Shown: positions 8,412 to 48,581 of the stretch, piece by piece | Position numbering within the stretch: the stretch's first letter is position 1 | Layout: each line of letters starts with the position of its first letter | DNA from: an uncultured Gammaproteobacteria bacterium | Lineage (GTDB): Bacteria; Patescibacteriota; Microgenomatia; UBA12405; JAHJSD01 | NCBI GenBank assembly: GCA_964468355.1 | Contig: CAYXSV010000036.1 | Location: 1 to 58,351, forward strand | Direction: 5' to 3' | DNA: 58,351 nt | Notes under the pieces: model-generated | Told to the model about the DNA's origin: nothing | Seen by the model: only the letters and a program-made list of their open reading frames with translations | Databases searched by the model: none | Program-made: the position numbers and the translations under genes

Positions 8412-9365
8412 TTATTTATTGCCGGAGTGATACTTATTATGTGTCTCCTGAAGATGGCGGTCGGTAACATGTGTATAAATCTGGGTTGTAGAAATATTCT
8501 TGTGACCAAGCAATTCCTGAACGGCACGTAGGTCCGCGCCTTGTCTTAAAAGATCGGTAGCAAATGAATGACGCAAAACATGCGGAGTAACTTTAATCGG
8601 TATCTTTGCCTTCTTACGATACTTTTCTACCAACCGTTGGACCGAACGATCTGATAAACGCATTTCCTCATCATCCATTGAGGGATCCATTTTACCTGAA
8701 TACCTTATAAAAAGTGGATCGTAATGATCATCTCTGGCGGCCAAATATCGATCAAGCCATTTTACGGCTCTATCGGAAAGAAAGACTACCCTTCCTTTTT
8801 GTCCTTTACCAATCACTCCGACTTCACGAGTTTTTAAATTTATTTCATCCCTGTCCAACCCAACCAATTCGCTTACCCGCAAGCCAGTTGAAAACAGAGT
8901 TTCTAAAATTGCTTTATCTCTTAAACCAATTTTTGTTGATATTTTTGGTTGATTTAAAAATTTTAATAATTGTTCCGATTTAAGGAATTTTACCTGCCTT
9001 TCGTCTGTTTTAGGTAAATCAACTTTATCAGGAGTAACTTTTACGTTGTAATCATTCTTAATCAACCAACTTAGAAAGGATCTTAAGGCAATTATATGGT
9101 ATCCCTGGGTTTTTTTCTTTAAATAAGTCCCCTTACGAGTTTCAATTCTAGCCAGCCAAATACGGAATTTCCGCACATTTTTTGCGCTAAGATCGGATAG
9201 AGTAGGGGAGGATTCACTTTTTTTTGACTTCAAAAACTCATAAAAGCGTTTTAAATAATGGCGGTAATTTCTAATTGTTAACGGTGAACAGTTTCGCTCA
9301 ATTTCTAGAGAATCTAAAAATTTAGTTACTAAAGTCCATAAGTTTTTATTTTTAAAATTCGGCAT
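8412..9365 (-). CDS. Tyrosine site-specific recombinase, XerC/XerD-like
   Basis: C-terminal HVLRHSFATDLL...LLGHKNISTTQIYTHV (R-H-R-Y family motifs) and an N-terminal SAM-like core-binding domain. Confidence 0.88.
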   Translation of the reverse strand: MPNFKNKNLWTLVTKFLDSLEIERNCSPLTIRNYRHYLKRFYEFLKSKKSESSPTLSDLSAKNVRKFRIWLARIETRKGTYLKKKTQGYHIIALRSFLSWLIKNDYNVKVTPDKVDLPKTDERQVKFLKSEQLLKFLNQPKISTKIGLRDKAILETLFSTGLRVSELVGLDRDEINLKTREVGVIGKGQKGRVVFLSDRAVKWLDRYLAARDDHYDPLFIRYSGKMDPSMDDEEMRLSDRSVQRLVEKYRKKAKIPIKVTPHVLRHSFATDLLRQGADLRAVQELLGHKNISTTQIYTHVTDRHLQETHNKYHSGNK

Positions 9366-9372
9366 TATTTTT

Positions 9373-9401
9373 AAGTTAACATCATTTTAATTTAATGTCA
9401 A
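9373..9401 (-). promoter_or_regulatory. Candidate promoter TTGACA-17-TAACTT (TGT-extended), 7 nt from the recombinase ATG
   Basis: The minus strand reads TTGACA ttaaattaaaatgatgt TAACTT aaaaata ATG. No SD sequence. Confidence 0.35.
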
Positions 9402-9422
9402 GATTGTGCGACGTAGAAAAAA

Positions 9423-9486
9423 AGTAATCAGTAATTAGTAATTGGTAATTAGTAATTATTTCAAAATAGTTAGTAATTTAGTAATT
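9423..9486. repeat. Heptad array AGTAATC AGTAATT AGTAATT GGTAATT AGTAATT ... AGTAATT TAGTAATT
   Basis: 7-nt tandem periodicity. Same word family (reverse complement) as 43578-43612. Confidence 0.85.
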
Positions 9487-10228
9487 TAACAATGTAATAA
9501 TAACCACTTTACCCTATCTATAGATATAAAATCATTAGAGCCATTCTAAGCGGCTTTTTAAAATATAGCTGTGTAATCGGTCTTCAGTCAATCACCTCTT
9601 TTAAAAAATTAACTAAAAAACATGAATTTCTGACTAATTTTTTGTTTAGAGTAGTGGTTGAGTGGTTAAGTAGAAAAGTTTAATTAAGAAACCGAAATTA
9701 AAAGAAGTATAAAACTGCAAATTAAATAAATCTACTTTTTATTTTTATTTTTTTATATTTTAATTTTAATTTATTTAATTTATTTTTTTGTTTAAAACCA
9801 ATTTCCTAGCCCACCATTATTTATCGCGTCGCAAAAGAAATATTGTGCGACATATAAGAAAAGTGCTTTAAAAAAAGATGAATAATCACCTATTAAGAGA
9901 AGGTCACTAAATTACTTAATAATTATAATAAAATTAGAACTTTAATTCCATTTAGGATTAATTTATAGAGATTAGTGGCTAAAGAAGCAAATGCCTTTTA
10001 AGAAGGGGTTAATAATTAGTTATCCACAATAAAGTAAAACTTTTTCGCGTCCTACTCAGTTTTCGCTTATCATTAGATAGACTAGCAATCAAATTTAATG
10101 ACTGCTATTTGTGAAAAGTATCCTATAATTTTCACAGATGGGATATTATATTATAGGATAATAGAAGGTTTTATTATAGGTTAATTTTTAACCCCTCTCC
10201 CCTACCTCGACTAGTTATAAGAAAAATA

Positions 10229-29552: not shown

Positions 29553-29621
29553 CGTAACATGAAACACGTAACCCGTAACACGAAATAAAAAAAGATTTTG
29601 CATGTTACTTATTACGTTAAC
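29553..29621. repeat. Empty heptad hairpin unit 2 (identical 34-nt left arm; shorter right arm ATGTTACTTATTACGTTAAC overlapping the stop codon of the 29617 gene)
   Basis: Perfect 34-nt direct repeat of 29425-29458. Confidence 0.85.
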
Positions 29622-30246
29622 TATTCTCGTCTAAACAAAGAATCCAATCTCTTGTATTTACCGTCCCATTGTCATCAAAATCATACCTGGTATCACTTGT
29701 CCCAAATTTTTCTTTAAATTCACTTTTATCACAACTGGTTACTTTTTCAGACGGTTCAGACGGTTCAACCGGTTGTGTAGTAGCTTGCGGCTTCGGGCTC
29801 GGTTCAGCTGCCGGCATGTCCGTCGGCTCGACAACCGGCTCCGGCTCTTGAGATGCTGCCCCTTCTTCCTCTTTAGTTTTAAAAGAATAAGGAATACCGT
29901 TATTATCAAAAATCTCATCGTCTATTCTTAACCTAAAATAATAAGTCGTCTCTGATTTAAGCGGTGATAAAACCACCCGATGAGTTGTCCCCGGCTGATT
30001 TTCCAAAGCTCTTAAAAGCAAGCTGGCTGGAGTTGTACCATACTCGACAGTACCTTGGACTTCATTATCAGTCTGCCAGCTGACGGTCGCTGATTTAACA
30101 TCGGCCTCAACCCGGACATTCTGCGGTTCTTTTCCACCGGAAGCACCACTTAAATAAGTTTTAGCAGTTCTTACTCCAACTGCAGCTAAAACTCCGGTTA
30201 ATAACAAAATTACAATTATAATGACTGATTTTACCTTTTTCTTCAT
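29617..30246 (-). CDS. Membrane-anchored FN3-like domain protein with a C-terminal single dockerin-like Ca-loop
   Basis: Start set at MKKKVKS (ATGA overlap with the upstream stop). FN3/PAP-N-like PQNVRVEADVKSATVSWQTDNEVQGTVEYG...TTYYFRLR. P/E-rich linker. C...YDFDDNGTVNTRDWILC. Confidence 0.6.
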   Translation of the reverse strand: MKKKVKSVIIIVILLLTGVLAAVGVRTAKTYLSGASGGKEPQNVRVEADVKSATVSWQTDNEVQGTVEYGTTPASLLLRALENQPGTTHRVVLSPLKSETTYYFRLRIDDEIFDNNGIPYSFKTKEEEGAASQEPEPVVEPTDMPAAEPSPKPQATTQPVEPSEPSEKVTSCDKSEFKEKFGTSDTRYDFDDNGTVNTRDWILCLDENS

Positions 30247-30914
30247 AATGCTAACACCCAACTAAATAATAACATAATTCCTCCACCCAATGCAGCGATA
30301 AGTAAAGGAGTTTCTATACCTGTTTCCGGAAGCTCGCTCGGTGTAGGTGTTGGTTCTTCAGGAGCAGAAGTCGGCTGGGGTTCTTCTGTTGGTTCCGGTT
30401 CTCCGGCCCCGATTACGTAACTGCCGCTGCCGCAAGCAGCACAGTCAATTAAATCATTTCCCTGTTGATCCCAAATTGCAGAGTCAGTATCAACCCCGGA
30501 TTCACATAAAAAAGAAACTGAAGCTGTCCCTTCGGCAGTTGCTTCAAAACTAATAGTTGCAATTTCACCAACTCCGCTGTTGGTTACCAAGGCCTGTTCA
30601 GAAAAAGAATAAATCGTCAGCTTACCATTAGCGTTTTCAATATTATAATCAAACCCGGAAAAGAAATCACCTGCTGAAACCTGGTTAACTTTTAATTTAT
30701 TCTGGTCAAAACTAATTAAAGCGTCAGCGGCCATTGCTTCCTTATCTCCGGTGTCAATCTGAACAACCACATCAAAATTATCGCCAACATTATAATTACC
30801 TTCCGAGGGTTCAAAATACAAACGCGGACCGGCCTTAGCACCTACGGCAGATGCATGCCATATAAAAACAAAAACGATTATTGGTAATCCTAACCATTTT
30901 AATATTTTGTTCAT
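30243..30914 (-). CDS. Cohesin-domain protein with a C-terminal LPETG sortase sorting signal
   Basis: Signal peptide. Cohesin-like YFEPSEGNYNVGDNFDVVVQIDTG...ALISFDQNKLKV...GEIATISFEATAEGTASVSF. PT linker. LPETG (nt 30318-30332) followed by a hydrophobic tail. Confidence 0.7.
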   Translation of the reverse strand: MNKILKWLGLPIIVFVFIWHASAVGAKAGPRLYFEPSEGNYNVGDNFDVVVQIDTGDKEAMAADALISFDQNKLKVNQVSAGDFFSGFDYNIENANGKLTIYSFSEQALVTNSGVGEIATISFEATAEGTASVSFLCESGVDTDSAIWDQQGNDLIDCAACGSGSYVIGAGEPEPTEEPQPTSAPEEPTPTPSELPETGIETPLLIAALGGGIMLLFSWVLAL

Positions 30915-30921
30915 TTAAACC

Positions 30922-31506
30922 TTATTCAATATTCAAAACTAAATCTTCTTTAGTAAAACCGAACTCTTCTCCTCCGCCGGCAAGTACAGTACCTTCACTT
31001 CCTACAGGGGCGTAAACTTCAATCTTAGTTTGACCGGCAGCTAAACCCACCAATTTTATAGTCGATAAATTGGTTTGACTTCCTGCCTCAAAAACTACCC
31101 CTTCCGGAGCGTCGGTTTCAACCATAGAAATTAATACCCTTTCTTTTTCCGGCTCAACCCAATTACGGCCGACAAAAGAAAATTCGTCGGTAGGATCAGC
31201 CCCGATAATTTCAACTACATCCGGGTCATATTTAAGATAAATATCAACCCCGTCCAGATTTATCGTTTTTAAAGCAGTTAAAACTACTTTAAACGACTCC
31301 TCTTCTCCAGCACTTATTTGATTTTCACCTTCCAAGCTTATTATCGCCGGTTCTTGAACTTCGTTTATCTCATTCGGTGATGAAAAACGTTCTTTTACCG
31401 AGCCGGTTTTTAACTGTAATCGATTTACTACAATTACACTTTCTAAAATAATTAGTAAAGCCAAGGCCGGAATCAACCATTTCGTTTTTTCTATATTAAA
31501 ATTCAT
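30922..31506 (-). CDS. Membrane-anchored cohesin-like domain protein
   Basis: N-terminal TM helix. FKVVLTALKTINLDGVDIYLKYDPDVVEI...LSTIKLVGLAAGQTKIEVY. Confidence 0.55.
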   Translation of the reverse strand: MNFNIEKTKWLIPALALLIILESVIVVNRLQLKTGSVKERFSSPNEINEVQEPAIISLEGENQISAGEEESFKVVLTALKTINLDGVDIYLKYDPDVVEIIGADPTDEFSFVGRNWVEPEKERVLISMVETDAPEGVVFEAGSQTNLSTIKLVGLAAGQTKIEVYAPVGSEGTVLAGGGEEFGFTKEDLVLNIE

Positions 31507-31562: not shown

Positions 31563-32687
31563 TTAAAGTTCGTCTTCGTATTTTGTACTCAGTGTTTCCA
31601 GGAAAAAGACAACATCCTGTGAATTGACAATCCCGTTAAAATTAATATCTTCTTCGATTTCACCTTCAACCATTAATGCTTGTTTCAAAGTGGTAAAATC
31701 AGCGCTGTTAACTACACCGTTTTGGTCAATATCCCCGGGCTCCAAATTAAGAGCAGTCCAATCAAACTCGTTTTCGCCGGCATTCAAAGTAATACCTTCC
31801 TCGCCGAGCCAGCAGTGTTCCACCTGCTCATCCTCACAAAAACGGCGGGCTAAATGGACCGGACCTTTTATTAAAACTGCATAGTTGTCCCCCGGCTCAA
31901 CCCCGACTAATTCTAAACTACCTGTCCCCACGGCTTGGTTATCAAATTCAACCATTACATCTTTATACCTTTGACTGATTCCATTACCTTTCACAATTAC
32001 GTCAACCGGCTGTGTTCCAATATCTTCAACAATTTTTTCCTGATTATTAACCAAATATTTTGTTCCTCCAAATGTAATTTGAAAAGACAATTCCGGCCAG
32101 CCGGCAGGCGGTTCAGTAGGAATTGGCGTCGGTTCGCCCCCTAAAACATCAATCTCCGCGTCGGAAAATGAACCAATATCCAAAACTCTATCATCAACTC
32201 CTTCAACCCCCTTTGACCCGACAAATGAAACAGCTGCTGTTTTAGACAGAGTACTACTGCCTTCATTTAATAATTTAAATTTAAAACCAGCTAAATTGAA
32301 CGGTTCAGCCGGAATTTGGCCGTCTGATTTTAAATATGAAACGGTTTCAACTACCCCCTCGTCAACTACCTGAGAAACGCCGTTATAATTCTCATTTAAT
32401 TCCACCGATTGAAATTCCAGAATATTAGGGTCATAACTAATACTGAAATGACCGCCGCTGACTAAATATTCTTCAGGCAGTACCTGCAATTGAACATTAG
32501 CTGTTTCTTGATCAAGGTCAACTTCTTGAACATCCGGAAGAAGCTGTAAGTTAATTTCTCCATAGGCAGCTTCTCTTCTTACTTCCTGGGTCTGCTTTAC
32601 CAAAATTAAACCGGCAAAGACGGATATAAAAGGAATTAAAAGTAACAAAACCAATATCCTATTTTTATAATCTTTTTGATTAGTCAT
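31563..32687 (-). CDS. Cohesin-like, beta-sandwich and canonical type-I-like dockerin protein
   Basis: N-terminal TM helix plus QTQEVRREAA. HFSISYDPNILEF cohesin-like region. C-terminal DIDQNGVVNSADFTTLKQAL...DINFNGIVNSQDVVFFLETL (two Ca-loop/helix repeats). Confidence 0.7.
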   Translation of the reverse strand: MTNQKDYKNRILVLLLLIPFISVFAGLILVKQTQEVRREAAYGEINLQLLPDVQEVDLDQETANVQLQVLPEEYLVSGGHFSISYDPNILEFQSVELNENYNGVSQVVDEGVVETVSYLKSDGQIPAEPFNLAGFKFKLLNEGSSTLSKTAAVSFVGSKGVEGVDDRVLDIGSFSDAEIDVLGGEPTPIPTEPPAGWPELSFQITFGGTKYLVNNQEKIVEDIGTQPVDVIVKGNGISQRYKDVMVEFDNQAVGTGSLELVGVEPGDNYAVLIKGPVHLARRFCEDEQVEHCWLGEEGITLNAGENEFDWTALNLEPGDIDQNGVVNSADFTTLKQALMVEGEIEEDINFNGIVNSQDVVFFLETLSTKYEDEL

Positions 32688-32689
32688 TT

Positions 32690-33994
32690 TTAAAATTTAG
32701 GCAACTCACTATACCACTGTTCAACATCATCTTCACTTAAAATACCGTCGCAATTAAAGTCACCGTATAAATTATCACTGCCTAACTTATAATCATCGTA
32801 CCAGCCGGCAAAATCTTCCATATTAACTGTTCCGTCACAGTCGTAATCGGCTTTAGACTCAATTTTAGTTCCGTCCGGACACGGCTTGCACCCGGTTTGG
32901 GGCTCCGTCGTGGCTGTCGGCTCCGGTGTATTAGTTGCACTCGGCGGCATCGTGGCTGTCGGTTCCGGCGTATTGGTTGCACTTGGCGGCATCGTGGCTG
33001 TCGGCTCCGGTGTATTGGTTGCACTCGGCGGTCTTGTGTTTGTCGGTGTCGGCGTACTTTCCGTACAATCCTGGACAAATACCGCTGTCCCTCCGGTATA
33101 ATCAATATCAACCGACTTTCCGTCTTCAGTAGTCCCGGCAACAATAGATTTACTCTCATTCAGATTAAAATTAAACCGCCCCGGTTCAGTGCCGGTAATC
33201 TCAACACCAATTCTAAAGCTCCTCGGCGGGTTACCACCGGCATAAAGCGAAGTTACAAGCAGCTCATTATTTCTGGCATCATAACCTCCCTCCCCCCACT
33301 TACTATCAAAAGTTACATTTTTAATTGTGCTTCTGGTCGAATCATAATCAAAATACAACTGCAAACCGGACATGCTTTTTCCTGAATCGCCTGAAACGGT
33401 TATTGTTCCCGTTTCTTGTGTGCAAAGATGCAAACTGCTCGGCTGGGAAATTGTAATTGTCTCACCTGCCGGACTGTCCGTCGGAGTGGAAGCCGGTGTA
33501 TTAGTATTAACCGGACTATCACAATCAACCACCTTTACCGTGGTATCACCGGATGCACTAATATTCATACTGTCATCTTCAAGTCCACTCATAAAACTTT
33601 TCCCGGTTAATAACCTAAAACTTGAATTGCCTAAACTTTTACCCCTTAAAGTAACATTAAATTGAATATTTTTTTGAGGATTTGCAAACATATGAGAACT
33701 AACACTTAAATCACCCTCAAAAATACTCCAAGTTTTGTTGACATCTTCAATCTCGACTTTACTATCATCAAATCCAAAGTCGAAAGCATAACTGGTTATT
33801 TTCTGGTTTGAACTGCCGCTTACCGCAAAAGTCTCCGTATCTCCCAAACACACTTCAACTTCTGAGGGAAGCTGAATATTCCCACCGCCTGCCGCCCCTC
33901 TTCTTGTTTCTAAATTTTCTCGAACAACATAACCGGCGAAGACAAGACTTAGCAAGCCAACTATACTGATAAAAGCTAATTTTAAGTTATTCAT
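32690..33994 (-). CDS. Protein with two Cys-stapled cohesin-like modules, a PT-repeat linker and a Cys-framed dockerin-like C-terminus
   Basis: N-terminal TM helix plus ENLETRRGAAGG. Modules VEVCLG...VVDC and HLCTQ...VQDC. Three copies of PPSATNTPEPTATM. CKPCPDG...DYDCDGTVNMEDF...DFNCDGILSEDDV. Confidence 0.65.
   Translation of the reverse strand: MNNLKLAFISIVGLLSLVFAGYVVRENLETRRGAAGGGNIQLPSEVEVCLGDTETFAVSGSSNQKITSYAFDFGFDDSKVEIEDVNKTWSIFEGDLSVSSHMFANPQKNIQFNVTLRGKSLGNSSFRLLTGKSFMSGLEDDSMNISASGDTTVKVVDCDSPVNTNTPASTPTDSPAGETITISQPSSLHLCTQETGTITVSGDSGKSMSGLQLYFDYDSTRSTIKNVTFDSKWGEGGYDARNNELLVTSLYAGGNPPRSFRIGVEITGTEPGRFNFNLNESKSIVAGTTEDGKSVDIDYTGGTAVFVQDCTESTPTPTNTRPPSATNTPEPTATMPPSATNTPEPTATMPPSATNTPEPTATTEPQTGCKPCPDGTKIESKADYDCDGTVNMEDFAGWYDDYKLGSDNLYGDFNCDGILSEDDVEQWYSELPKF
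32910..33031. repeat. 42-bp tandem repeat, about 2.9 copies (encodes the PPSATNTPEPTATM linker)
   Basis: Units at 32910-32951, 32952-32993 and 32994-33031 with a few substitutions. Confidence 0.9.
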
Positions 33995-34050
33995 ATACGT
34001 ATATTAATTAAACAATACAACATTTTTAAAAAAAATAAAAGTCCCAATTT

Positions 34051-36006
34051 TTAATCACAATTAGAATGTTCCGTTGGACACCATCGGGCATACCATATTT
34101 GATGATCCGAAACAGTAATATCCCCGTCGCAATCATAATCTCCATATAATTCATCTTTATCTACTCTCTGTCCGTCTAATTTAACTTTAGAATACTGCTG
34201 TGCCCATCGGCCGTAATCGACATTTTGTTTACCGTCGGTATCACAATTAAAACTAGATGTTCTAACAGGAGCAAAACTGCCGTCCGGACACGGCTTGCAT
34301 CTTTCTTCCCCACCCCCGACAACAATTTTCTGACTCAATAGGTTATTTTCTTCGTTAACTTCCTCAATCTGGTCTTCACGATCAACCCATACATAAACAT
34401 CGTGTTCGCCGGCTTCATCAAAGACATAATCATACGACCAGTCAAACTTTTTATCCGGTATCAACCAAACATGATGACCGTAATATGAAGTTTCCGGTGT
34501 TGCTTGCGTCGGGGGCTGTTGCTCCGGGTCTATATATAAATAAGTAGTAAAATCCCTAGTTGCCATTTGACCAATATTTTTAATCTCGGCCGTTATACTT
34601 ACTTCATCTCCGGGCTGCGGATTAGACGGGCTGTAACTAATACTAGAAATTGTCAAATCCGGCATTCTGTCATCCTCCACACAGGCCGAATCCGGGGCCT
34701 CAAATTCTATTAAATAAGAACCCTCGGGTAGTTCGCTTCTGCTCCATCTAGCATTGGGAATATAAGGATTCCAATACTCGCCGTAGGTTATCGCCGAATG
34801 CGGCGGATTGCCCCTTAATTGCAAAAATTCATCATTTTCACATTTTTCTCTTTCACACAACCCAACATATAATCCATTTCTTTCATCTGTACTAATTATG
34901 GTAGTCATTTTAGCTCCTATTCTTGAATCTTCTAAAACCGGCTCAAAAGGGTTTGGCGGCCAAGCTACATACCAGGTACTTACTTCAATATCCGCTATAC
35001 TTCCGTCCTCACATACCGCCGCTGTCTCTATATCCCACGATAAACTCTCTGAAACTATTGATACTACCCGGTTACAGTTACTACACTCAGCCGTAGCATT
35101 ATTACAAGTTCCAACTGGATTACCTGTACACCAATTATCCATTTCGTCATATACATTAGCTACAACATAATATTTACCCTGGGAAACACCTGAAACATCC
35201 CACTCTGCTTCCCAACCGTCACTGCCATTATTATCAGTGTCAATTACCGTCCAATTATTACTGTCACAGTAATAACTCTCAGTAGCATTCTCCTTGTATT
35301 CTGCGTAGGCAAATGTTACTTCTTTTAAATCGCCGTCCTCATCACTCGCTGTTGCCTTCACCAATGTCTTATCCTCACTAATAACGGAATTTACGGATAA
35401 ATTAGTGCATTCAGGTACATTTTCGCCTCCTGAGGCCGGCGTATTGGTTGGGTCAACCGGTGGAGCAGGCGTAGGCGTTGGGTCAACCGGCGGTGCAGGT
35501 GTGCTTGTCGGCTCTTCACCACAAATACAATCGGTGTCAGTTAAACAATCCGGGTTTCTGCAAACACCTGAACTTGATATTATTTCTCTTTCAAAATCAG
35601 TTGTTTCAATTAACTCTTGTGCTAACTGATCACTTTCTCCCATCACAACTCCGCCGCTGACCGTCTGACAGTTTCCATCTGGGCCACATACGCAATCCTC
35701 TCCTTCCGGAGGCATCACATCCGGACAGTAAACACCAGTATTCCTTGGTACACAATCTTGTCCGCACCACATACAATCCCTGTCTGAACTACAGCCCTCT
35801 TTATAACAAACTAAACCGCTTCCACACTGTGAATCGTCTGAGCAAGGTTGATTACAATCACTGACAGCGGCCTTGCGGGTTTCCTGCCTTTGCTGAACTA
35901 AGTTGATTGCCGCCGGTAAAGCAATTCCTAAAATTAGTAAACCCAAAATTATCGGCAATTGAGACATGCCCTTTTGCTGATATTTTTTATTTTTGATTAA
36001 ATTCAT
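34051..36006 (-). CDS. Large secreted cysteine-rich modular protein (Cys-knot modules, Ig-like, CARDB-like, Cys-framed dockerin-like C-terminus)
   Basis: N-terminal TM helix plus QQRQETRKAA. CNQPCSDDSQCGSGLVCYKEGC... modules. CARDB-like PDLTISSISYSPSNPQPGDEVSITAEIKNIG. The C-terminal 82 aa CKPCPDG...WCPTEHSNCD is a paralog of the 36546 gene's C-terminus. Confidence 0.65.
   Translation of the reverse strand: MNLIKNKKYQQKGMSQLPIILGLLILGIALPAAINLVQQRQETRKAAVSDCNQPCSDDSQCGSGLVCYKEGCSSDRDCMWCGQDCVPRNTGVYCPDVMPPEGEDCVCGPDGNCQTVSGGVVMGESDQLAQELIETTDFEREIISSSGVCRNPDCLTDTDCICGEEPTSTPAPPVDPTPTPAPPVDPTNTPASGGENVPECTNLSVNSVISEDKTLVKATASDEDGDLKEVTFAYAEYKENATESYYCDSNNWTVIDTDNNGSDGWEAEWDVSGVSQGKYYVVANVYDEMDNWCTGNPVGTCNNATAECSNCNRVVSIVSESLSWDIETAAVCEDGSIADIEVSTWYVAWPPNPFEPVLEDSRIGAKMTTIISTDERNGLYVGLCEREKCENDEFLQLRGNPPHSAITYGEYWNPYIPNARWSRSELPEGSYLIEFEAPDSACVEDDRMPDLTISSISYSPSNPQPGDEVSITAEIKNIGQMATRDFTTYLYIDPEQQPPTQATPETSYYGHHVWLIPDKKFDWSYDYVFDEAGEHDVYVWVDREDQIEEVNEENNLLSQKIVVGGGEERCKPCPDGSFAPVRTSSFNCDTDGKQNVDYGRWAQQYSKVKLDGQRVDKDELYGDYDCDGDITVSDHQIWYARWCPTEHSNCD
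35447..35506. repeat. 30-bp tandem duplication encoding the TPAPPVDPT(P/N) linker
   Basis: GTTGGGTCAACCGGTGGAGCAGGCGTAGGC / GTTGGGTCAACCGGCGGTGCAGGTGTGCTT. Confidence 0.85.
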
Positions 36007-36521
36007 TTAAATATACTCATTATCCATTTCCATAACTTTAAAAACTCACTATTTTTTTCACAGTTAATTACTTTAACATCACTTTCTCCGGAAACACTGA
36101 TGTTTATGTCTTCGTCTTCTATTCCTCCCATCCAGCTGTCAGTTTCTAGAAATTTAAATTTTGAATTTCCAATTTTGGCACCTTTTAAGTTAACATTAAT
36201 CTGGAAATCTTTTTGGGGGTTGTTAAATATATGAGAACTCACTTTTAAATCACCATCTTTAATGCTCCACGTGCGATCAACATCTTCTATCTCCACCATA
36301 TTTTGATCAAAATCAAAAGCAAACACGTAACCGGTTATTTCTTGATCAGCCCGGCTTGTAACAGTTAATTTTTTAATTTCACCTAAACAGACTTCGACCT
36401 GAGGAGGAAGAATAATTTTTCCCTCAGCTTTAACCGGTCTTACAAAAAATAAATCTTGTTTAATAATAAGGTGAAGAAATATCAAAACTATTAAGAAAGA
36501 ACCGTATTTGAGTTTTTTCAT
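36003..36521 (-). CDS. Secreted Cys-stapled cohesin-like single-module protein (paralog of the N-terminal module of the 32690 gene)
   Basis: PPQVEVCLGEIKKLTVTSRADQEITGYVFAFDFDQNMVEIEDVDRTWSI...VKVINC aligns with PSEVEVCLGDTETFAVSGSSNQKITSYAFDFGFDDSKVEIEDVNKTWSI...VKVVDC. ATGA overlap with the next gene. Confidence 0.55.
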   Translation of the reverse strand: MKKLKYGSFLIVLIFLHLIIKQDLFFVRPVKAEGKIILPPQVEVCLGEIKKLTVTSRADQEITGYVFAFDFDQNMVEIEDVDRTWSIKDGDLKVSSHIFNNPQKDFQINVNLKGAKIGNSKFKFLETDSWMGGIEDEDINISVSGESDVKVINCEKNSEFLKLWKWIMSIFK

Positions 36522-36545
36522 AAAATATAAAGTAGCTTAAATATG

Positions 36546-38873
36546 TTAATCACAATTTGAATGTTCTGTCGGACACCATCTGGCATACCATATTTGATGA
36601 TCAGAAACATTTATTTCTCCGTCACAATTGTAATCTCCGTATAATTGGTTACTAGGCACTTGTTTACGTTCAATTACAACCGCGTAATACTGCTGAGCCC
36701 ACCGACCGTAGTCAACATTCTCTTTACCATTCGTATTGCATTTAAAACTGGATGTATTTTGAGAAGCGAAACTACCATCCGGACACGGTTTACAACCTTT
36801 TCCGGGTCCCGGCGGTACAGTTGTCGGCTCAGATTCAGAAATACATTTACTATAATCGCTTGCCCATTTATAGCCGGTCGGCGGATAAAGCTCACAATTT
36901 ACAGCTCCGGAAGTGCCCTCTGTCTTTCCGCACCCTGAATGTCCCGGGCAATAATCAGATACACATTGAACAGCACAATTATCTTTTGTTGGACTACCAC
37001 AATCTGCATCTGTTTGACAAGTTTGTCCTGGTCTTACCGTTGGCGAAAGAGTATTTGTCGCCCGCGGCGCTCTTGTCGGAGTATTTGTCGGTGTTTCTTC
37101 ACATGCACTATCAGGACATTGACGATAACCACCGGGATTACTCGTATACCAATCACAACCATAACCACAAGTTGACGTTACACAATAGCAAATTTCTTCT
37201 GGTGGTGTTGGTGTATTTTCCGGATTTTCACATCTATCCGCCCAGCAAACTTCAATCGGGAAATAGGAATGCGGACCACAAGTTAAACCCTCCTTACACT
37301 CGTTATTTTGTAAGCATGTATCGCCACAATCTTTATTCCCGGCAGACGGCGTATTTGTCGGTGTTTCTTCCGGGATACAACATACCTCATTGTGGCCGCG
37401 GCAATCAGTAGGATCCACTGCCTTTTCACCAGTTTTACACCCTCCTACTCGACAAACCCCAGCATCAGAATCTCCCAGATAACCGCAAGTTTGTAATTTT
37501 GGTTCAGGCGTATTCGTTGGTTCAGGTTCACAACAATATTTATATCCTCCACCAAAATCTACTCCACACTTTTTAGCATACCAAACTTGACCTCCACAAT
37601 TTGCCGGTGGCACACATGACTCCTCTGGATCACAATCTACAAATTCCGGTTCACAAGCACATCCACCACCCACCATCTCACAACTCTCACCTGAAGGACA
37701 ATCCCCTACACACTCATTGCCATTCGGTGTCGACATCATACGGCATACACTTGGTGTATTTGTTGGAGCTCTAGGTGTATTTGTTGGCCGTGGCCCACAA
37801 TAACAGACAGTACCAACACAGTAATAACTGTTCTTGCAACGACTGCAATTAGGGAGAACAGGGTCAGTATATGTTTGACACCTGGTTCCATCTTGCAAGC
37901 CGGCTGACGGTGTAGGCGTAAAATTATAACAAGTACAACATGAGTCAACATCTCGACTTGTCGGGCTTGAACAGTGTCCGCCATCAACACCATGAACTTT
38001 TTGGCATGCTTCTGTACATGAAGAATATTCACCTAAACAACAAATACAATTATCGCAGGCCCGACATGTACCAGGCATTCCTTGCCTTAAATCACAATAT
38101 TTTGATTGACATTCGGAATTAGAACTACATTGCCAGCCATTTGGCTTCGGCGTACTTGTCGGCTGTGGTTTTGTTCGGCATGTACCAGGCATCCCCTGAC
38201 TTAAATCACAATAACTAGAACAACATTCCGAGTTGCTACCACACTGCGAACCATTGGATTTACAACTTGGTGTATTTGTTGCTCGCGGTCTTGTTGTATT
38301 TGTCGGTTGAGGTTTTGGGGTATTGGTCGGATAAGGTGAACAATTTGCATTACATGTACCTTCACTGGAATAAGTTCCGTCATAACCTTGGACACAATAC
38401 CCCAGAGAACGAGAACACTTCCATTTTAAATCAACTTCTCCATAACACTCACATTCTCCGTCAATAGTTGGATGGGGTTTACATTCCCTACCCGAAGCAC
38501 AGGTACCTACACATTGAAATCCTGCCGGAGTAAATTCTCCTCTGCACGTTTCTTCATAAGGCGTTGCCGTCGCTGGCGGTGGAGCTGTCTTACATTCGGC
38601 ACATATACTTGAATGCTGAGTACATTTTGGGCCACAATAACCTCTATCTACCCAATTACCGTCAACACACTCATAATCATGGCAATCACCTTGATTACAA
38701 TGTGTGCCCGTCAAGCCACCACATGTACTTGCCGCTTCTTTTCTTGTTTCCTGGCTTTGCTGGGTTAATCTTAATGCCGCCGGTAAAGCGACTCCCAAAA
38801 GTAGCAAACCAATTATAATCGGAACCTGCGCACTTCCGCGTTGATTAAAAATATTTTTAATTCTTGTTAACAT
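36546..38873 (-). CDS. Hyper-cysteine-rich (about 88 Cys in 775 aa by hand count) modular secreted protein with PTNTP linkers and a Cys-framed dockerin-like C-terminus
   Basis: N-terminal TM helix plus QQSQETRKEAA. About 10 Cys modules, each with an even Cys count, separated by P/T-rich linkers. Internal tandem module NG[SW]QC[GS]SNSEC.S.YCDL.QGMPGTCR x2. C-terminal CKPCPDG...WCPTEHSNCD. Confidence 0.65.
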   Translation of the reverse strand: MLTRIKNIFNQRGSAQVPIIIGLLLLGVALPAALRLTQQSQETRKEAASTCGGLTGTHCNQGDCHDYECVDGNWVDRGYCGPKCTQHSSICAECKTAPPPATATPYEETCRGEFTPAGFQCVGTCASGRECKPHPTIDGECECYGEVDLKWKCSRSLGYCVQGYDGTYSSEGTCNANCSPYPTNTPKPQPTNTTRPRATNTPSCKSNGSQCGSNSECCSSYCDLSQGMPGTCRTKPQPTSTPKPNGWQCSSNSECQSKYCDLRQGMPGTCRACDNCICCLGEYSSCTEACQKVHGVDGGHCSSPTSRDVDSCCTCYNFTPTPSAGLQDGTRCQTYTDPVLPNCSRCKNSYYCVGTVCYCGPRPTNTPRAPTNTPSVCRMMSTPNGNECVGDCPSGESCEMVGGGCACEPEFVDCDPEESCVPPANCGGQVWYAKKCGVDFGGGYKYCCEPEPTNTPEPKLQTCGYLGDSDAGVCRVGGCKTGEKAVDPTDCRGHNEVCCIPEETPTNTPSAGNKDCGDTCLQNNECKEGLTCGPHSYFPIEVCWADRCENPENTPTPPEEICYCVTSTCGYGCDWYTSNPGGYRQCPDSACEETPTNTPTRAPRATNTLSPTVRPGQTCQTDADCGSPTKDNCAVQCVSDYCPGHSGCGKTEGTSGAVNCELYPPTGYKWASDYSKCISESEPTTVPPGPGKGCKPCPDGSFASQNTSSFKCNTNGKENVDYGRWAQQYYAVVIERKQVPSNQLYGDYNCDGEINVSDHQIWYARWCPTEHSNCD

Positions 38874-38882
38874 TTTTATTTT

Positions 38883-39125
38883 TTATTGACAGCAATAAGG
38901 CGTCTCACTTGGACAATCGCCTTTGTTCCATTTCATATTTAATAAGTGACAATACTGCTCTTTACATTCTGTTTGGCAGGGATAACCAACCTGAGGCATC
39001 GAACTGCCGGCCGCCCCGCGCCGTGTTTCTTGAGTCTGCCTAACCAAAGCAACCACACCAGTCAATATAATTAAAACGAAAAGTATTAATAGAAGTTTTA
39101 AAATTTTCTGTTTACTTTGATCCAT
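38883..39125 (-). CDS. Small (80 aa) precursor: TM helix plus RQTQETRRGAAG motif plus a 6-Cys C-terminal peptide
   Basis: First gene of the operon. The C-terminal PCQTECKEQYCHLLNMKWNKGDCPSETPYCCQ has six Cys. Confidence 0.5.
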   Translation of the reverse strand: MDQSKQKILKLLLILFVLIILTGVVALVRQTQETRRGAAGSSMPQVGYPCQTECKEQYCHLLNMKWNKGDCPSETPYCCQ

Positions 39126-39153
39126 AAATAGATATAATTTTCTAACTATTTAC

Positions 39154-39183
39154 ACTTTAGACGAATATACTCTCGTTTGTCAA
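39154..39183 (-). promoter_or_regulatory. Candidate promoter for the surface operon (TTGACA-18-TAAAGT on the minus strand)
   Basis: Exact -35 hexamer but a weak -10. This is the only intergenic gap longer than 60 nt at the 5' end of the operon. Confidence 0.3.
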
Positions 39184-39194
39184 GGTCTAGTTTC

Positions 39195-39223
39195 TGGACA
39201 AGGAACAAAATTTACTATATATA
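39195..39223 (+). promoter_or_regulatory. Candidate promoter TGGACA-17-TATATA, 7 nt from the ATG at 39231 (leaderless-type)
   Basis: Divergent from the surface operon. No SD sequence. Confidence 0.35.
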
Positions 39224-39230
39224 ATAGTAT

Positions 39231-40598
39231 ATGGGAAAATTGCCGACGATACTAGCCATGCTTCTCATTATCCCTATTGGTTTATACGCCGTATTTCAAA
39301 ACCATGATTTGCGGCGGTCTGCGTTCGGTAAAAAAGCAGACATTAAAATCGACGTCTCCAAACCCGGGGGTTTAATTTCAAAATCTCTCTGGCAAAACTT
39401 TTCTCAAGGCGGAGAAGAACCAAAAGACATGATCGCTCCGGTCAAAAACGAGGTTGCCAATCTTCAGCCGGAAATCATCCGCATTGACCATATTTTTGAC
39501 TATTATGTTGGCATTAACGGTCGGGTTTATGACTTTTCAAAATTAGACCAAATAGTCCAAACTATTCTTGATACCGGTGCTAAACCAATGTTTTCTTTAT
39601 CTTACATGCCGCCGGAAATTGCTGTTGACGGCCAAAAGACTTCTCCGCCCCAAAACTGGAATCAATGGAATGAACTGGTTAAAGCGACTATTTCGCGTTA
39701 TTCAGGACAAAACAATTTTAATTTAAACAATATTTATTATGAAGTCTGGAACGAGCCGGATTTATTCGGCGGCTGGCACTATGGCCGGGAACCGAACTAT
39801 TTAACACTTTATTATCATACGGTTAAATCCGCCCAAGAAATAGAAAACGTCAACAATTTTAAAATCGGCGGCCCGGCAACCACCGGTTTCTACCCTAATT
39901 GGATCAAGGCCCTATTTGATTATTGCTACAAAAACAAGTTGAGAATTGATTTTGTTTCCTGGCACCATTATTCTAAAAATATTAATGAATATTTAAGAGA
40001 TTTTGAAAAATTAAATCAAATTTTGACCGATTACGGCGATTACTTTAATGTCGAGCGCTTAATTACCGAATACGGACCCGACTCGGAAAATTCCCCCTGG
40101 TATGACAATCATTTGGGTGCTGTTCACAGTTTAGCCGGAGTAACTAAATTAATGGGAAAAGTCCATCGCATTTTTGCTTTTCAGCTTAAAGACGGTCCTT
40201 CACCGGAAAGTAAAAAATATTGGGGACGGTGGGGTTTAATAAGCCACGAAAACCACGAAATAAGTTTAAAGCCGAGATATTACGCTTATCAATTTTTAAA
40301 TCAACTAGAAGGTCAACAGCTTCCTCTGGAAGGCGAGGGTTCCTGGGTATCGGCAGCAGCAGTTAAAAAAGATAATAAAATTCAAGTTTTAGTTGTTAAT
40401 TACGACCCGTCAAACAACCATTACGAATCCCCGCCGATTACATTAGAAAATATTGAGCCGGGCAACTATATTTTCCGCCAAATTAGATTCCAGGGACAAG
40501 CGGTTGCCTCAAGAGAAAAAATTGAAAAAACAACAATAACTAAAAAGTTTATTCTTCAACCCAATTCAGCAATTTTACTGGAATGGATTAAATTGTAA
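39231..40598 (+). CDS. Membrane-anchored clan GH-A glycoside hydrolase, GH39-like
   Basis: N-terminal TM helix. YYEVWNEPDLFGGW (acid/base NEP) and LITEYGPD (nucleophile E) in a (beta/alpha)8-like spacing. Confidence 0.6.
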   Translation: MGKLPTILAMLLIIPIGLYAVFQNHDLRRSAFGKKADIKIDVSKPGGLISKSLWQNFSQGGEEPKDMIAPVKNEVANLQPEIIRIDHIFDYYVGINGRVYDFSKLDQIVQTILDTGAKPMFSLSYMPPEIAVDGQKTSPPQNWNQWNELVKATISRYSGQNNFNLNNIYYEVWNEPDLFGGWHYGREPNYLTLYYHTVKSAQEIENVNNFKIGGPATTGFYPNWIKALFDYCYKNKLRIDFVSWHHYSKNINEYLRDFEKLNQILTDYGDYFNVERLITEYGPDSENSPWYDNHLGAVHSLAGVTKLMGKVHRIFAFQLKDGPSPESKKYWGRWGLISHENHEISLKPRYYAYQFLNQLEGQQLPLEGEGSWVSAAAVKKDNKIQVLVVNYDPSNNHYESPPITLENIEPGNYIFRQIRFQGQAVASREKIEKTTITKKFILQPNSAILLEWIKL

Positions 40599-40644: not shown

Positions 40645-41022
40645 ATGGGAAAAATAAATTATTTTACCGACTTAAAAGCTTGGCAAATAAATCACCAAGT
40701 AGCTTTAAAAATATATAAATTAACGGAAAATTTTCCATCAAATGAAAAATACGGCCTAACTGATCAGCTACGAAGAGCAGCATCTTCTGTTACTGCTAAC
40801 ATTGCAGAAGGTTGGGGACATTACCATTTTGCTAATCGCTTAAGATTTTATTACAACGCCCGTGGGTCAAATTGTGAGGTGCAAAACTTTCTTATTTTAG
40901 GAAAAGATTTGGAATATATCGATAAATCTAAGTACAAAAAAATTGTAGAAGAAGTTTTCGAAGGATTTAGAGTATTAAACGGTTTGATTAAATCAGTCAA
41001 AAAACTCAATAAAAACAAGTAA
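40645..41022 (+). CDS. Four-helix-bundle protein (23S rRNA intervening-sequence protein / Avd-like family)
   Basis: FTDLKAWQ...ALKIYKLT..FP..EKYGLTDQLRRAASSVTANIAEG...F..RL.FYY.ARGS..EV matches the family pattern. Confidence 0.85.
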   Translation: MGKINYFTDLKAWQINHQVALKIYKLTENFPSNEKYGLTDQLRRAASSVTANIAEGWGHYHFANRLRFYYNARGSNCEVQNFLILGKDLEYIDKSKYKKIVEEVFEGFRVLNGLIKSVKKLNKNK

Positions 41023-47262: not shown

Positions 47263-47820
47263 TTAGTCAAAATCAACCCAGTGTTTGGAGGCAGTCGGGC
47301 CCTTTTGACCTTGATATTTACTTTTTAATTTTTTACTTCCATAAGCATTTTCAACTTTGCTGGTCATTTTATAAAAGACTATCTGCGCAATCCGCATACC
47401 GGCATACATTCGAATCGGCAGGCGTGAAATATTGGCAATTTCAAAAGTAAGCCAGCCGGAAAAACCGGGGTCAACATAACCGGCGGTAGCATGAACAATC
47501 AATCCCAGCCGGCCCAAAGAGCTTCTACCCTCCAGTTTTGCCGCTACACTTAACGGCAAAGTCACTTTTTCCGCAGTCGAGCCAAGAATAAACTCTCCGG
47601 GATGCAAAACAAATCCAGCTTCTTTAATTTTAACCACCCGTGAAACATCCTCCTTTTTCCGAACGTCTATTTCGCCTTGATTCCAGTTATCAAATACACG
47701 CACCTCTTCGCTTAACTCTAAATCCAAACTGGAAGGTTGAAGATTTTCCGGTTTAAAAGGGTCAATTTTAATCTTTCCGCTCTTAATCTTATTTTTAATA
47801 TCTTTATCTGAAATAATCAT
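47263..47820 (-). CDS. dcd: dCTP deaminase (dUTPase superfamily)
   Basis: MIISDKDI...I.P......QP.S.DL.L, GRSSLGRLGL, and GFSGWLTFEI motifs. Confidence 0.88.
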   Translation of the reverse strand: MIISDKDIKNKIKSGKIKIDPFKPENLQPSSLDLELSEEVRVFDNWNQGEIDVRKKEDVSRVVKIKEAGFVLHPGEFILGSTAEKVTLPLSVAAKLEGRSSLGRLGLIVHATAGYVDPGFSGWLTFEIANISRLPIRMYAGMRIAQIVFYKMTSKVENAYGSKKLKSKYQGQKGPTASKHWVDFD

Positions 47821-48581
47821 TCCTTTAATTTACCAAAGACTAATAACCGTTTCAATATTGTCCCCGGCGGCCAGCAGGTCTGAAGAATTATCTCCTCACG
47901 TCCCGGCTGATAATCAGTTAAGTAAGAAATATCTTTGGCTCCGACAATCTTCTTATCAAAAATTTGATAAGTATAAGGCCGGTTTTGGTAAACCAAGTGA
48001 ACTTCATCACCCGGCTCCAGCTTATTTAACAAAAAGAAAACCGCATTATAACGGACCACATTCCATTCGGCATTAGTTGAATGAGCAAAAAGAAAAACCG
48101 GCTTAGTTGACCCGGGTAAACCGCTTCCGGCTGCATGAGCGACACCGTCTTTTAAAACTTCCTGATAAATTTCAGGTTTGCCGGGATCAATGTTGGGAAA
48201 TACTTGAGCACTGGACTCTAATTTGGGAATATAAACTGAAAAATCCTTGTTTATAACCGGCCAGTCATCCGGAACTTCTGGTATCGGCATTGGAGTCGGT
48301 GTTAGGGTCGGAGTCGGATTACCTCGTAGGGACAAGTCGCGACTTGTCCCTACATCCACTCTCTGCCAATGATATCCAGCCATTGCTCTGGCCAACGGCA
48401 GCCAAAGATAAGTTAAATACCCTAAACACAAAATAACCGCTCCCGTTCCCAAACCAAAAACAAATGTTCTTATTTTTGACGGGTTATAAAAAATAAGCTG
48501 TTTTTTACCTTTCTTTGGTTTAACTGCCTTCTTTAATTTCGGATCAAAAAAATCTTTCATGGTTGCTTTCTTATTATACAT
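47817..48581 (-). CDS. Sortase-family transpeptidase (membrane-anchored)
   Basis: N-terminal TM helix, PT linker, VFLFAHST (His), ILQTCWPPG (TLxTC-type Cys), and a downstream Arg (KRLLVFG). Confidence 0.8.
   Translation of the reverse strand: MYNKKATMKDFFDPKLKKAVKPKKGKKQLIFYNPSKIRTFVFGLGTGAVILCLGYLTYLWLPLARAMAGYHWQRVDVGTSRDLSLRGNPTPTLTPTPMPIPEVPDDWPVINKDFSVYIPKLESSAQVFPNIDPGKPEIYQEVLKDGVAHAAGSGLPGSTKPVFLFAHSTNAEWNVVRYNAVFFLLNKLEPGDEVHLVYQNRPYTYQIFDKKIVGAKDISYLTDYQPGREEIILQTCWPPGTILKRLLVFGKLKE
48326..48353. repeat. Perfect 28-nt palindrome GTAGGGACAAGTCG|CGACTTGTCCCTAC inside the sortase linker coding region
   Basis: 14+14 nt self-complementary. Encodes ..GTSRDLSLRG.. between the TM helix and the PT linker. 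Confidence 0.95.

Follow-up and report, generated by a model that had tools for sequence, protein, structure and literature searches.

A conserved polar motif behind the N-terminal hydrophobic helix of otherwise unrelated proteins in Microgenomates bacteria, a candidate element of a specialised signal peptide

The contig CAYXSV010000036.1 (assembly GCA_964468355.1; 58,351 nucleotides (nt), all of which were analysed and are called the window here) carries a nine-gene operon on the minus strand and a divergent GH39-like gene, which together fill 29.6–40.6 kb. Five products of the operon and the GH39-like protein have in common a short polar motif placed directly behind an N-terminal hydrophobic helix, and this motif is the subject of our analysis. 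Genes are named by the length of their protein, and motif positions are numbered from the conserved Arg, R(0). An earlier note on this DNA had reported five strong copies of the motif and a weak one in the GH39-like protein, and all six were recovered at the places it gave:

A80, gene 38883-39125, minus strand: N-terminal signal 39006..39125, residues 1-40; motif ...GVVALVRQTQETRRGAAGSS; L27-V-R-Q-T-Q-E-T-R35-R-G-A-A-G40; R(0) is residue 35; a K-rich n-region and a 21-residue hydrophobic helix stand before it.
B775, gene 36546-38873, minus strand: N-terminal signal 38727..38873, residues 1-49; motif ...AALRLTQQSQETRKEAAST; L36-T-Q-Q-S-Q-E-T-R44-K-E-A-A-S49; R(0) is residue 44; preceded by RG-SAQVP-IIIGLLLLGVALPAAL.
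D651, gene 34051-36006, minus strand: N-terminal signal 35860..36006, residues 1-49; motif ...AAINLVQQRQETRKAAVSD; L36-V-Q-Q-R-Q-E-T-R44-K-A-A-V-S49; R(0) is residue 44.
E434, gene 32690-33994, minus strand: N-terminal signal 33887..33994, residues 1-36; motif ...GYVVRENLETRRGAAGGG; V23-V-R-E-N-L-E-T-R31-R-G-A-A-G36; R(0) is residue 31.
F374, gene 31563-32687, minus strand: N-terminal signal 32559..32687, residues 1-43; motif ...GLILVKQTQEVRREAAYGE; L29-V-K-Q-T-Q-E-V-R37-R-E-A-A-Y-G43; R(0) is residue 37.
J455, GH39-like gene 39231-40598, plus strand: N-terminal signal 39231..39329, residues 1-33; variant motif ...YAVFQNHDLRRSAFGKK; A20-V-F-Q-N-H-D-L-R28-R-S-A31-F-G33; R(0) is residue 28.

All six proteins start, at the extreme N-terminus, with a positively charged n-region followed by a hydrophobic core. 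The core of the motif, [Q/L]-E-[T/V]-R-[R/K]-x-A, stands directly behind this helix in A80, B775, D651, E434 and F374, and J455 has H-D-L-R-R-S-A in the same place. When the core regular expression was run over the six-frame translation of the whole window, only six matches were returned, each of them directly behind an N-terminal hydrophobic helix. A degenerate DNA pattern for Q-x-Q-E-[TV..]-R-[RK]-x-A gave four matches compared to none in 100 dinucleotide-preserving shuffles. Over 102 codon-aligned nt, the copies are 33-49% identical in pairwise DNA comparison, with 70% for the paralogues B775 and D651, and in most pairs no more than half of the shared amino acids have the same codon (Arg is encoded by CGG, CGC and AGA, for example). 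The earlier note had allowed for the N-termini being recent recombinational copies of each other; the low DNA identity and the differing codons show that they are not. An element acting at the RNA or DNA level was likewise rejected, since the codons vary while the conservation sits at the amino-acid level.

Past the signal, A80 consists of a 40-residue peptide with six Cys, B775 of Cys-rich repeats followed by a C-terminal dockerin-like module, and D651 of a Cys-rich part, a CARDB domain and a C-terminal dockerin-like module. E434 contains two cohesin-like domains and then a dockerin-like C-terminus, and F374 contains cohesin and dockerin type I domains. In Pfam searches, Cohesin was found in F374 and in a further operon protein, H223, and E434 matched Cohesin just under the gathering score; Dockerin was found in F374, CARDB in D651 and Glyco_hydro_39 in J455. 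The mature parts had been described as not homologous to each other, which needs qualification: B775, D651 and E434 have a Cys-containing dockerin-like C-terminal module of about 75-87 amino acids (aa) in common, and E434 and F374 both match Cohesin. To that extent, the description holds only in part.

The motif is widespread beyond the window. A profile of the five operon N-termini was searched exhaustively against 1.84 billion cluster representatives, giving 215 representatives at E<=1e-3 and 10 at E<=1e-10. Word-indexed searches with N-terminal profiles returned 1 and 4 matches, presumably as they need exact shared 5-residue words, and are uninformative on frequency. In 148 of the 150 profile matches listed, the motif lies directly behind a hydrophobic helix, with R(0) at a median position of residue 40, and these proteins, hereafter carriers, are between 45 and 4000 aa long. 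Among 108 carriers searched against Pfam, 23 contain Dockerin and 17 Cohesin, while most others match no family. Cys makes up a median of 4.2% of their Cys-rich mature parts, a value that, like the sequence logo, is biased towards relatives of B775 and D651, the set having been gathered with a profile built from the window.

The consensus of the carriers comprises a [K/R]-rich n-region, a helix of ~20 residues with Pro at -13, and the motif L(-8)-V-[Q/K/R]-Q-x-Q(-3)-E(-2)-[T/I/V]-R(0)-[R/K]-x-A(+3)-[A/T/V]-[G/S..]. The whole module is 33-50 residues long, its helix often reads xPxIIGLLIL...ALPAA, and the mean net charge is +3.4 on the N-terminal side of the helix compared to +1.6 on the C-terminal side. 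Conservation in the carrier logo drops sharply past +5, although there is some circularity in the logo, the motif having served both to select and to anchor the set. Eight carriers end in LP[E/A/V][A/V]G (LPxAG-type) or a similar signal followed by a membrane helix.

A genome scan gave a consistent picture. The strict DNA pattern for L-V-[K/R/Q]-Q-x-Q-E-[T/I]-R-[K/R]-x-A, which holds an estimated 38 bits or so, was run over one genome per species (185,579 species, 596 Gb) and matched 46 sites, 38 of which lie in frame directly behind the N-terminal helix of an open reading frame (ORF). One site at a locus edge was not assignable, and seven are not behind a helix, with about four chance matches estimated from the information content of the pattern. 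The records of these seven are titled Chitinophagia, actinobacterium, Dehalococcoidia, Nanopelagicaceae, Gracilibacteria, Saccharibacteria and unclassified uncultured bacterium. The same pattern had no match over viral contigs. The 38 helix-linked sites come from at least 34 assemblies, and since several assemblies have matches on two or three separate contigs, the motif is not limited to one cluster per genome. By record title, 18 of the 38 belong to Shapirobacteria, the Patescibacteria group or the Microgenomates group, 19 to "uncultured Gammaproteobacteria" and one to Nevskiaceae. The "Gammaproteobacteria" records have gene order in common with contigs of the Candidate Phyla Radiation (CPR), and one of them is a 615-kb chromosome. 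Shapirobacteria/Patescibacteria-type gene content and order were seen in records that include L007-L010, L012, L016, L017, L019 and L020, titled Gammaproteobacteria, and L037, titled Nevskiaceae; these titles are probably wrong, or the bins contaminated.

Two of the loci, L036 and L050, are syntenic with the window. A homologue of B775 (P0123, 833 aa) sits in L036, and the A80 orthologues of L036, L050 and P0277 retain both the signal and the Cys peptide. Many genomes of a single lineage thus carry the motif, on hundreds of proteins that are otherwise unrelated, and the possibility raised in the earlier note that it might be absent outside this cluster is answered by the 215 representatives and the 38 helix-linked sites.

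The GH39 family provided a test set that is independent of the motif, as the 120 best homologues of J455 were chosen by their enzyme domain; the few that are named come from Patescibacteria, Shapirobacteria, Levybacteria or Woesebacteria. [D/E]-[L/I/W]-R-[K/R]-x-A-x-G stands behind the helix in 108 of the 120 orthologues listed, most of the other 12 being N-terminally truncated entries, and A-x-G is found in 92%. In an alignment of 72 sequences (47-80% identity), A31 does not vary and conservation at P15, R28 and G33 reaches 90% or more, on par with positions of the catalytic core. The "weak" version of J455 is therefore a genuine variant, conserved in orthologues that were selected without regard to the motif. 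In the AlphaFold model of J455 (mean predicted local distance difference test score, pLDDT, 92.5), residues 4-31 form a single helix with pLDDT <50 at 24-31. Beyond a short coil, the domain begins its first strand at residue 38, so the motif is predicted to lie outside the enzyme fold. The differing codons between copies and the conservation among GH39 orthologues indicate, at the level of sequence comparison, that selection acts on the peptide. The proposal of a shared N-terminal signal rather than a remnant of gene duplication is supported by the many unrelated carriers, the differing codons, the GH39 conservation and the position outside the predicted fold, and also by the lack of a match to any lipoprotein, twin-arginine (Tat), prepilin, YSIRK or SipW-cognate signal model.

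The motif coexists with other types of N-terminus, both in the operon and elsewhere in the window. The remaining operon genes and a nearby sortase gene are as follows:

C172, 36003-36521, minus strand: cohesin-like paralogue of E434 with an ordinary signal peptide, FFVRPVKA↓EGK; without the motif.
G194, 30922-31506, minus strand: N-terminal membrane anchor with a conserved Glu (LIILESVIVV); without the motif.
H223, 30243-30914, minus strand: cohesin protein; ordinary A-S-A signal peptide; LPETG and membrane helix at the C-terminus.
I214, 29617-30261, minus strand: Pur_ac_phosph_N/fn3 domain and dockerin-like C-terminus, with a degenerate relative of the signal, ...LLLTGVLAAVGVRTAKTYLSGASGG.
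Sortase gene, 47817-48581, minus strand: Pfam Sortase, E=9e-19.

In the same operon as the motif, C172 (VKA↓EG) and H223 (ASA↓VG) thus have ordinary signal peptides and G194 a plain Glu-containing anchor. Elsewhere in the window, the gene at 16890 has an ordinary AxA signal, the genes at 2265 and 49878 have lipobox-like signals, and the anchored HtrA and CtpA, like G194, are without the motif. H223-like proteins keep the ordinary signal in at least nine related loci, and G194-like proteins, a family that recurs in 13 loci, keep an I[I/L]ESV anchor. Each protein family thus holds to one type of N-terminus across related loci, and this constancy argues that the types differ in function. C172 is paralogous to the cohesin-like domain at the N-terminus of E434; G194 has no Pfam match and looks cohesin-like from its sequence; and Pur_ac_phosph_N/fn3 was found by Pfam in I214. 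Given the cohesin and dockerin matches, the LPETG and helix of H223 and the nearby sortase gene, the operon appears to encode a cohesin-dockerin-sortase surface system. H223 is a sortase substrate as judged from its sequence, and the sortase is likely its processing enzyme; it is context here and not the enzyme of the N-terminal motif.

We then compared the module with known signal classes. No Pfam or NCBIfam (June 2026 release) model covers it, either in the window proteins at E<=1 or in 108 carriers at E<=0.01, and membership of the YSIRK, KxYKxGKxW, Tat, prepilin and SipW-cognate classes is excluded because these model searches gave no match. For YSIRK-G/S (TIGR01168) there is also a difference in position, the motif being behind the core here and not at the border of n-region and core. 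For Tat (TIGR01409), the R-[R/K] pair is behind the core and no second hydrophobic stretch comes after it. SipW-cognate (TIGR04088) and KxYKxGKxW (TIGR03715) signals were rejected on the model search. The statement that the motif is neither a lipobox nor a prepilin site holds: no Cys is found in or beside it, which also disposes of a lipoprotein signal, and the prepilin or class III models (TIGR02532, PF07963, PF04021) have no match, nor is there a G↓F...E5 before the helix. An LPXTG/sortase sorting signal was rejected as the identity of the motif, since the motif is N-terminal; H223 and the eight carriers mentioned above bear separate signals of the LPXTG type. Literature searches with motif strings and for CPR signal-peptide or sorting motifs gave nothing relevant, with incomplete coverage, so that an earlier description is possible.

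A second element was seen at the start of the helix. It reads [K/R]-G-x-A-Q-[I/L/V]-P-[I/L/V]-[I/L]-[I/L]-G-L-L, is present in B775, D651 and 45 of 149 carriers, and has no pilin-model match. Located before the core, [K/R]-G-x-A-Q-[I/L/V]-P resembles a prepilin site but has Pro, not Glu, at +5, and A80, E434, F374 and J455 are without the prepilin-like Gly. The carriers with this element are very Cys-rich, with a median of 6.5%.

By analogy, the closest functional counterparts would be the YSIRK-G/S and KxYKxGKxW signals, with the classes read by dedicated peptidases also close. KxYKxGKxW marks accessory-Sec substrates for a special export route. Like the present module, it belongs to a long, motif-bearing N-terminal signal with a long n-region on a subset of surface proteins, but its motif is in the n-region, and no accessory SecA2/SecY2 genes were seen here. 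YSIRK-G/S of Firmicutes is similar in that a conserved motif in an unusually long N-terminal Sec signal marks many unrelated surface proteins of one lineage beside ordinary signals. It differs in sequence and lineage and in standing before the hydrophobic core rather than after it; moreover, YSIRK proteins typically carry LPXTG, whereas here the LPETG protein H223 bears an ordinary signal. For staphylococci, the YSIRK/G-S motif is described as directing precursors to the septum (PMC11370438).

The module also follows the layout of an ordinary Sec/signal peptidase I signal, with a basic n-region, then a hydrophobic core and then a polar c-region that closes with small residues; unlike in such signals, the c-region is ~12 residues long, charged (net +1 to +2) and near-invariant, and the core is as long as a membrane-spanning helix. 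SipW-cognate, lipoprotein and prepilin signals are likewise classes defined by a conserved motif beside the core, but they are read by dedicated peptidases (SipW, Lsp and PilD, respectively), whereas the present module has no lipobox Cys, no model match and no dedicated peptidase found in our survey. In mirror image, it resembles the C-terminal tripartite signals of LPXTG/sortase, PEP-CTERM/exosortase and GlyGly-CTERM/rhombosortase, with an outer-face motif, a membrane helix and a cytoplasmic basic cluster; these are also lineage-specific and found on many unrelated surface proteins. In contrast to cleavage of an N-terminal signal, which can only release the protein, their transpeptidases hand it to the wall or lipid, and the sortase system of the window itself (H223 LPETG; sortase 47817-48581) is separate from the N-terminal motif. 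What appears to be new here is a lineage-specific signal-peptide motif behind the hydrophobic core in CPR bacteria, while motif-bearing signal peptides as a kind are already known.

The reading that we favour, tentatively, is that the motif is the fixed polar c-region of a specialised Sec-type signal peptide, specific to Shapirobacteria and related Microgenomates and probably cleaved immediately behind the motif. Inserted with its N-terminus on the cytoplasmic side, the helix would bring the motif to the outer face of the membrane, where a common membrane-surface factor would read it. Endoproteolytic removal would take place just past the motif, with the invariant Ala at P3 and the small residue two positions later at P1, through signal peptidase I or a specialised paralogue. 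Mature N-termini would begin 1-3 residues past the motif, e.g. GGNIQLPSEVEVCLGDTETFAVSGSSNQK for E434 and SSMPQVGYPCQTECK for A80. Cleavage would release dockerin-bearing, cohesin and Cys-rich proteins, which could then be assembled onto cohesin proteins held in place by sortase, such as H223, or by a helix, such as G194. We infer that a fixed, charged c-region might be needed for routing, for the timing of release or for the choice of peptidase.

Several observations count in favour of cleavage. The small-residue ends of all six copies in the window fit the (-3,-1) rule of signal peptidase I (AAG, AAS, AVS, AAG, AYG and AFG). Among carriers, sites that fit this rule peak at +4, +5 and +6 (25%, 43% and 35%, respectively, compared to a background of ~12%), and 74% have such a site at +3..+8 compared to 51% of control windows. 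The A-x-G found in 92% of GH39 orthologues agrees with this. When C172 and E434 are aligned without gaps, the canonical VKA↓E of the former coincides with AAG↓G of the latter. The earlier note's view that this is not a classical AxA site is too strong, as the A-x-[G/S] end fits the rule and aligns with VKA↓E. In addition, folded domains begin 2-8 residues past the motif without a linker, some carriers are Cys-rich peptides of only 45-80 aa, and many have a C-terminal dockerin module, a type of module normally borne by released subunits. The C-terminal LPxAG-type signals of eight carriers were counted on the same side.

There is also evidence that weighs against this proposal. The hydrophobic stretch of ~20 residues and the net-positive polar stretch of ~12 residues are long for a signal peptidase I substrate, so that the module resembles a signal anchor as much as a signal peptide, and Sec substrates do not usually have conserved basic residues immediately outside the helix. 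Roughly one in four carriers, including the ...ETRRGAYF[S/A].. subfamily, are without a (-3,-1) site near the motif. A variable cleavage position would not explain the near-invariant Q(-3), E(-2), R(0) and A(+3), and in 22 of 148 carriers the helix is preceded by a Pro-rich N-terminal extension of 60-140 aa, some with a recurring EEI[T/K].L.LGI, which suits a permanent membrane protein better. No protease family recurs beside motif-bearing genes in ORF clustering over ~40 loci and a Pfam survey of 150 neighbour proteins, and no signal peptidase I signature was found in the loci examined. The neighbours are cohesin, Pur_ac_phosph_N, fn3, Big_13, PilN, PilO and housekeeping genes only; RseP (peptidase M50) adjoins carriers in four loci, as part of a conserved rpsB-tsf-frr-rseP neighbourhood. 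The bias of the carrier set noted above bears on the logo and the Cys content alike. As the near-invariance of Q, E, R and A goes beyond the needs of signal peptidase I, something else probably reads the motif, which we infer could be a specialised peptidase paralogue, a routing factor or a mechanism of retention or timing.

The resemblance to a signal anchor could be taken at face value, with the helix never cleaved and the carriers being type II membrane proteins. The motif would then be a short juxtamembrane helix on the outer face that holds the protein near the membrane or binds a partner that the carriers have in common (for instance lipid headgroups, wall polymers or a scaffold in the membrane). 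The length of the hydrophobic segment is that of a membrane-spanning helix, the AlphaFold helix runs through the motif to the invariant Ala, and a helical wheel drawn from the logo puts L(-8), T/I(-1) and A(+3) on one face. The long extensions, which would be cytoplasmic, make sense only with a retained helix, and the carriers without a (-3,-1) site and the lack of a peptidase near carriers agree with it. We nevertheless regard a permanent anchor as possible but doubtful: without a linker between motif and domain, GH39, cohesin and Cys-rich domains would be held tight beneath the wall, and neither the dockerin C-termini nor the 45-80 aa peptides would be expected. Eight carriers would have a sortase-type signal in addition to the anchor, the end of the motif aligns with the canonical cleavage site of the paralogue C172, and G194, HtrA and CtpA are anchored without any motif. 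That the motif has no special function is very improbable in our view. It would then belong to a homologous 5' cassette spread by duplication or recombination in small genomes and kept since any working signal peptide persists, which agrees with B775 and D651 being paralogous at both ends (70% DNA identity of the N-terminal regions), with C-terminal modules common to several carriers, so that domain shuffling is active, and with similarity of the entire N-terminal module rather than of the polar motif alone. Generic signal peptides drift quickly, however, while Q, E, R and A are almost invariant over proteins of 45-4000 aa and at least 34 assemblies. Among GH39 orthologues with no more than 47-80% overall identity, the motif Ala does not vary, and this alignment already hints at purifying selection on the polar residues beyond the needs of export. 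In addition, codons differ between copies, and ordinary signal peptides work in the same cells.

Two further explanations were considered. The motif could be a routing or timing tag inside a cleavable signal peptide rather than a cleavage determinant. It would direct a subset of exported proteins, for the most part Cys-rich, cohesin and dockerin proteins, towards one translocon, one site or one folding factor, in analogy to YSIRK-G/S in septal secretion or KxYKxGKxW in the accessory Sec system, and it could have a dedicated receptor or peptidase. This explanation overlaps with the specialised signal peptide and is separated from it by the reader of the motif. Two stable signal classes occur in one operon, with each protein family keeping its class across species; a whole module of 40-50 residues is conserved, including the element at the helix start in 45 of 149 carriers, and so beyond the cleavage site; and the carriers are strongly enriched in Cys, cohesin and dockerin. 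Accessory-Sec signals give a precedent for long n-regions, and the YSIRK/G-S signal gives one for a conserved trafficking motif in a signal peptide (PMC11370438). On the other hand, no candidate partner was found in the neighbourhoods surveyed, the enrichment may mirror the secretome of the lineage and the bias of the search profile, and the motif comes after the helix, where known routing motifs do not lie; a pure routing tag seems rather doubtful. The other explanation would make the motif the recognition site of a lineage-specific Microgenomates processing or sorting machine, an N-terminal counterpart of sortase or exosortase, with a dedicated membrane protease or receptor that reads LV+QxQE[T/I]R+xA at the outer face of the membrane and releases or routes Cys-rich, cohesin and dockerin proteins into a surface complex mediating attachment. 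We consider it unlikely, and a dedicated protease or secretion factor for the motif, as the earlier note had suggested, is purely conjectural.

CPR bacteria have tiny genomes, have not been brought into culture and presumably live attached to other cells, which gives surface and secreted proteins a central place in their biology; most of these proteins carry the annotation "hypothetical". With a fixed N-terminal tag, the exported proteins of Shapirobacteria and other Microgenomates can be listed cheaply, among them some that standard predictors might class as membrane anchors, and the tag is also a handle for finding the enzyme or receptor that reads it by phylogenetic profiling. The specialised signal peptide that we favour gives a concrete hypothesis, i.e. 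a second signal-peptide class beside the ordinary one. The tag also ties together a conserved cohesin-dockerin-sortase cassette that seems to be a small surface-assembly system of the lineage. If the dedicated machine existed, a cohesin-dockerin surface complex would mediate the attached lifestyle of these ultra-small cells.

The cassette was seen downstream of motif-bearing genes in many relatives and consists of three genes (window 29617-31506 and 36003-36521). Their products are a G194-like protein anchored by a Glu-containing helix, an H223-like cohesin protein that has an ordinary signal peptide and a C-terminus of the LPXTG type, and an I214-like Pur_ac_phosph_N/fn3 protein whose C-terminus is dockerin-like. 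It occurs in L009, L011, L014, L018, L024, L026, L033, L036, L046, L048 and L051, always between rpsU/yqeY/ybeY/dnaX and GH39/rseP, and looks like a small cohesin-dockerin-sortase surface-assembly system in Microgenomates. L051, the locus of a GH39 protein named Woesebacteria by NCBI, has the same cassette and the motif Q-D-T-R-[K/N]-x-A. The degenerate signal of I214 is retained by its orthologues, including that of L051, and I214 matches A80 in BLAST with E=3e-4.

A second conserved context was found in L007, L008, L017, L022, L028, L037 and L045 (e.g. L028:668-7254). It starts with rpsT, genes for PilN-like and PilO-like proteins and a gene for a small membrane protein, and continues with a Pur_ac_phosph_N/fn3/Big_13 protein of 440-457 aa that has a variant signal, ...L[V/I][K/R]QGPxxxxRAxPE. 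The last gene codes for a motif carrier with the Pro-rich N-terminal extension of 60-140 aa (some with EEI[T/K].L.LGI). The representatives P0201, P0210 and P0219, which are related to the carriers of this context, have a C-terminal LPEAG-type signal and helix. This gene order suggests that some carriers are linked to type IV pilus assembly genes.

The mature part of A80 (38883-39005), the first gene of the operon, is a conserved 6-Cys peptide of ~40 residues (MPQVGYPCQTECKEQYCHLLNMKWNKGDCPSETPYCCQ) that is at least 67% identical in the relatives L036, L050 and P0277 and has no Pfam match. From its sequence, the product could be a secreted disulfide-rich peptide, such as a toxin, a bacteriocin or an adhesin-like peptide. 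Between the GH39 gene and rseP, a gene at 40645-41022 codes for a 125-aa "23S rRNA intervening sequence protein" (PF05635) and lies outside any rRNA operon. At 8412-9365, a tyrosine recombinase of the phage-integrase family, possibly XerC/D-like, is followed by a stretch of ~860 bp (9366-10228) without an ORF of at least 100 aa.

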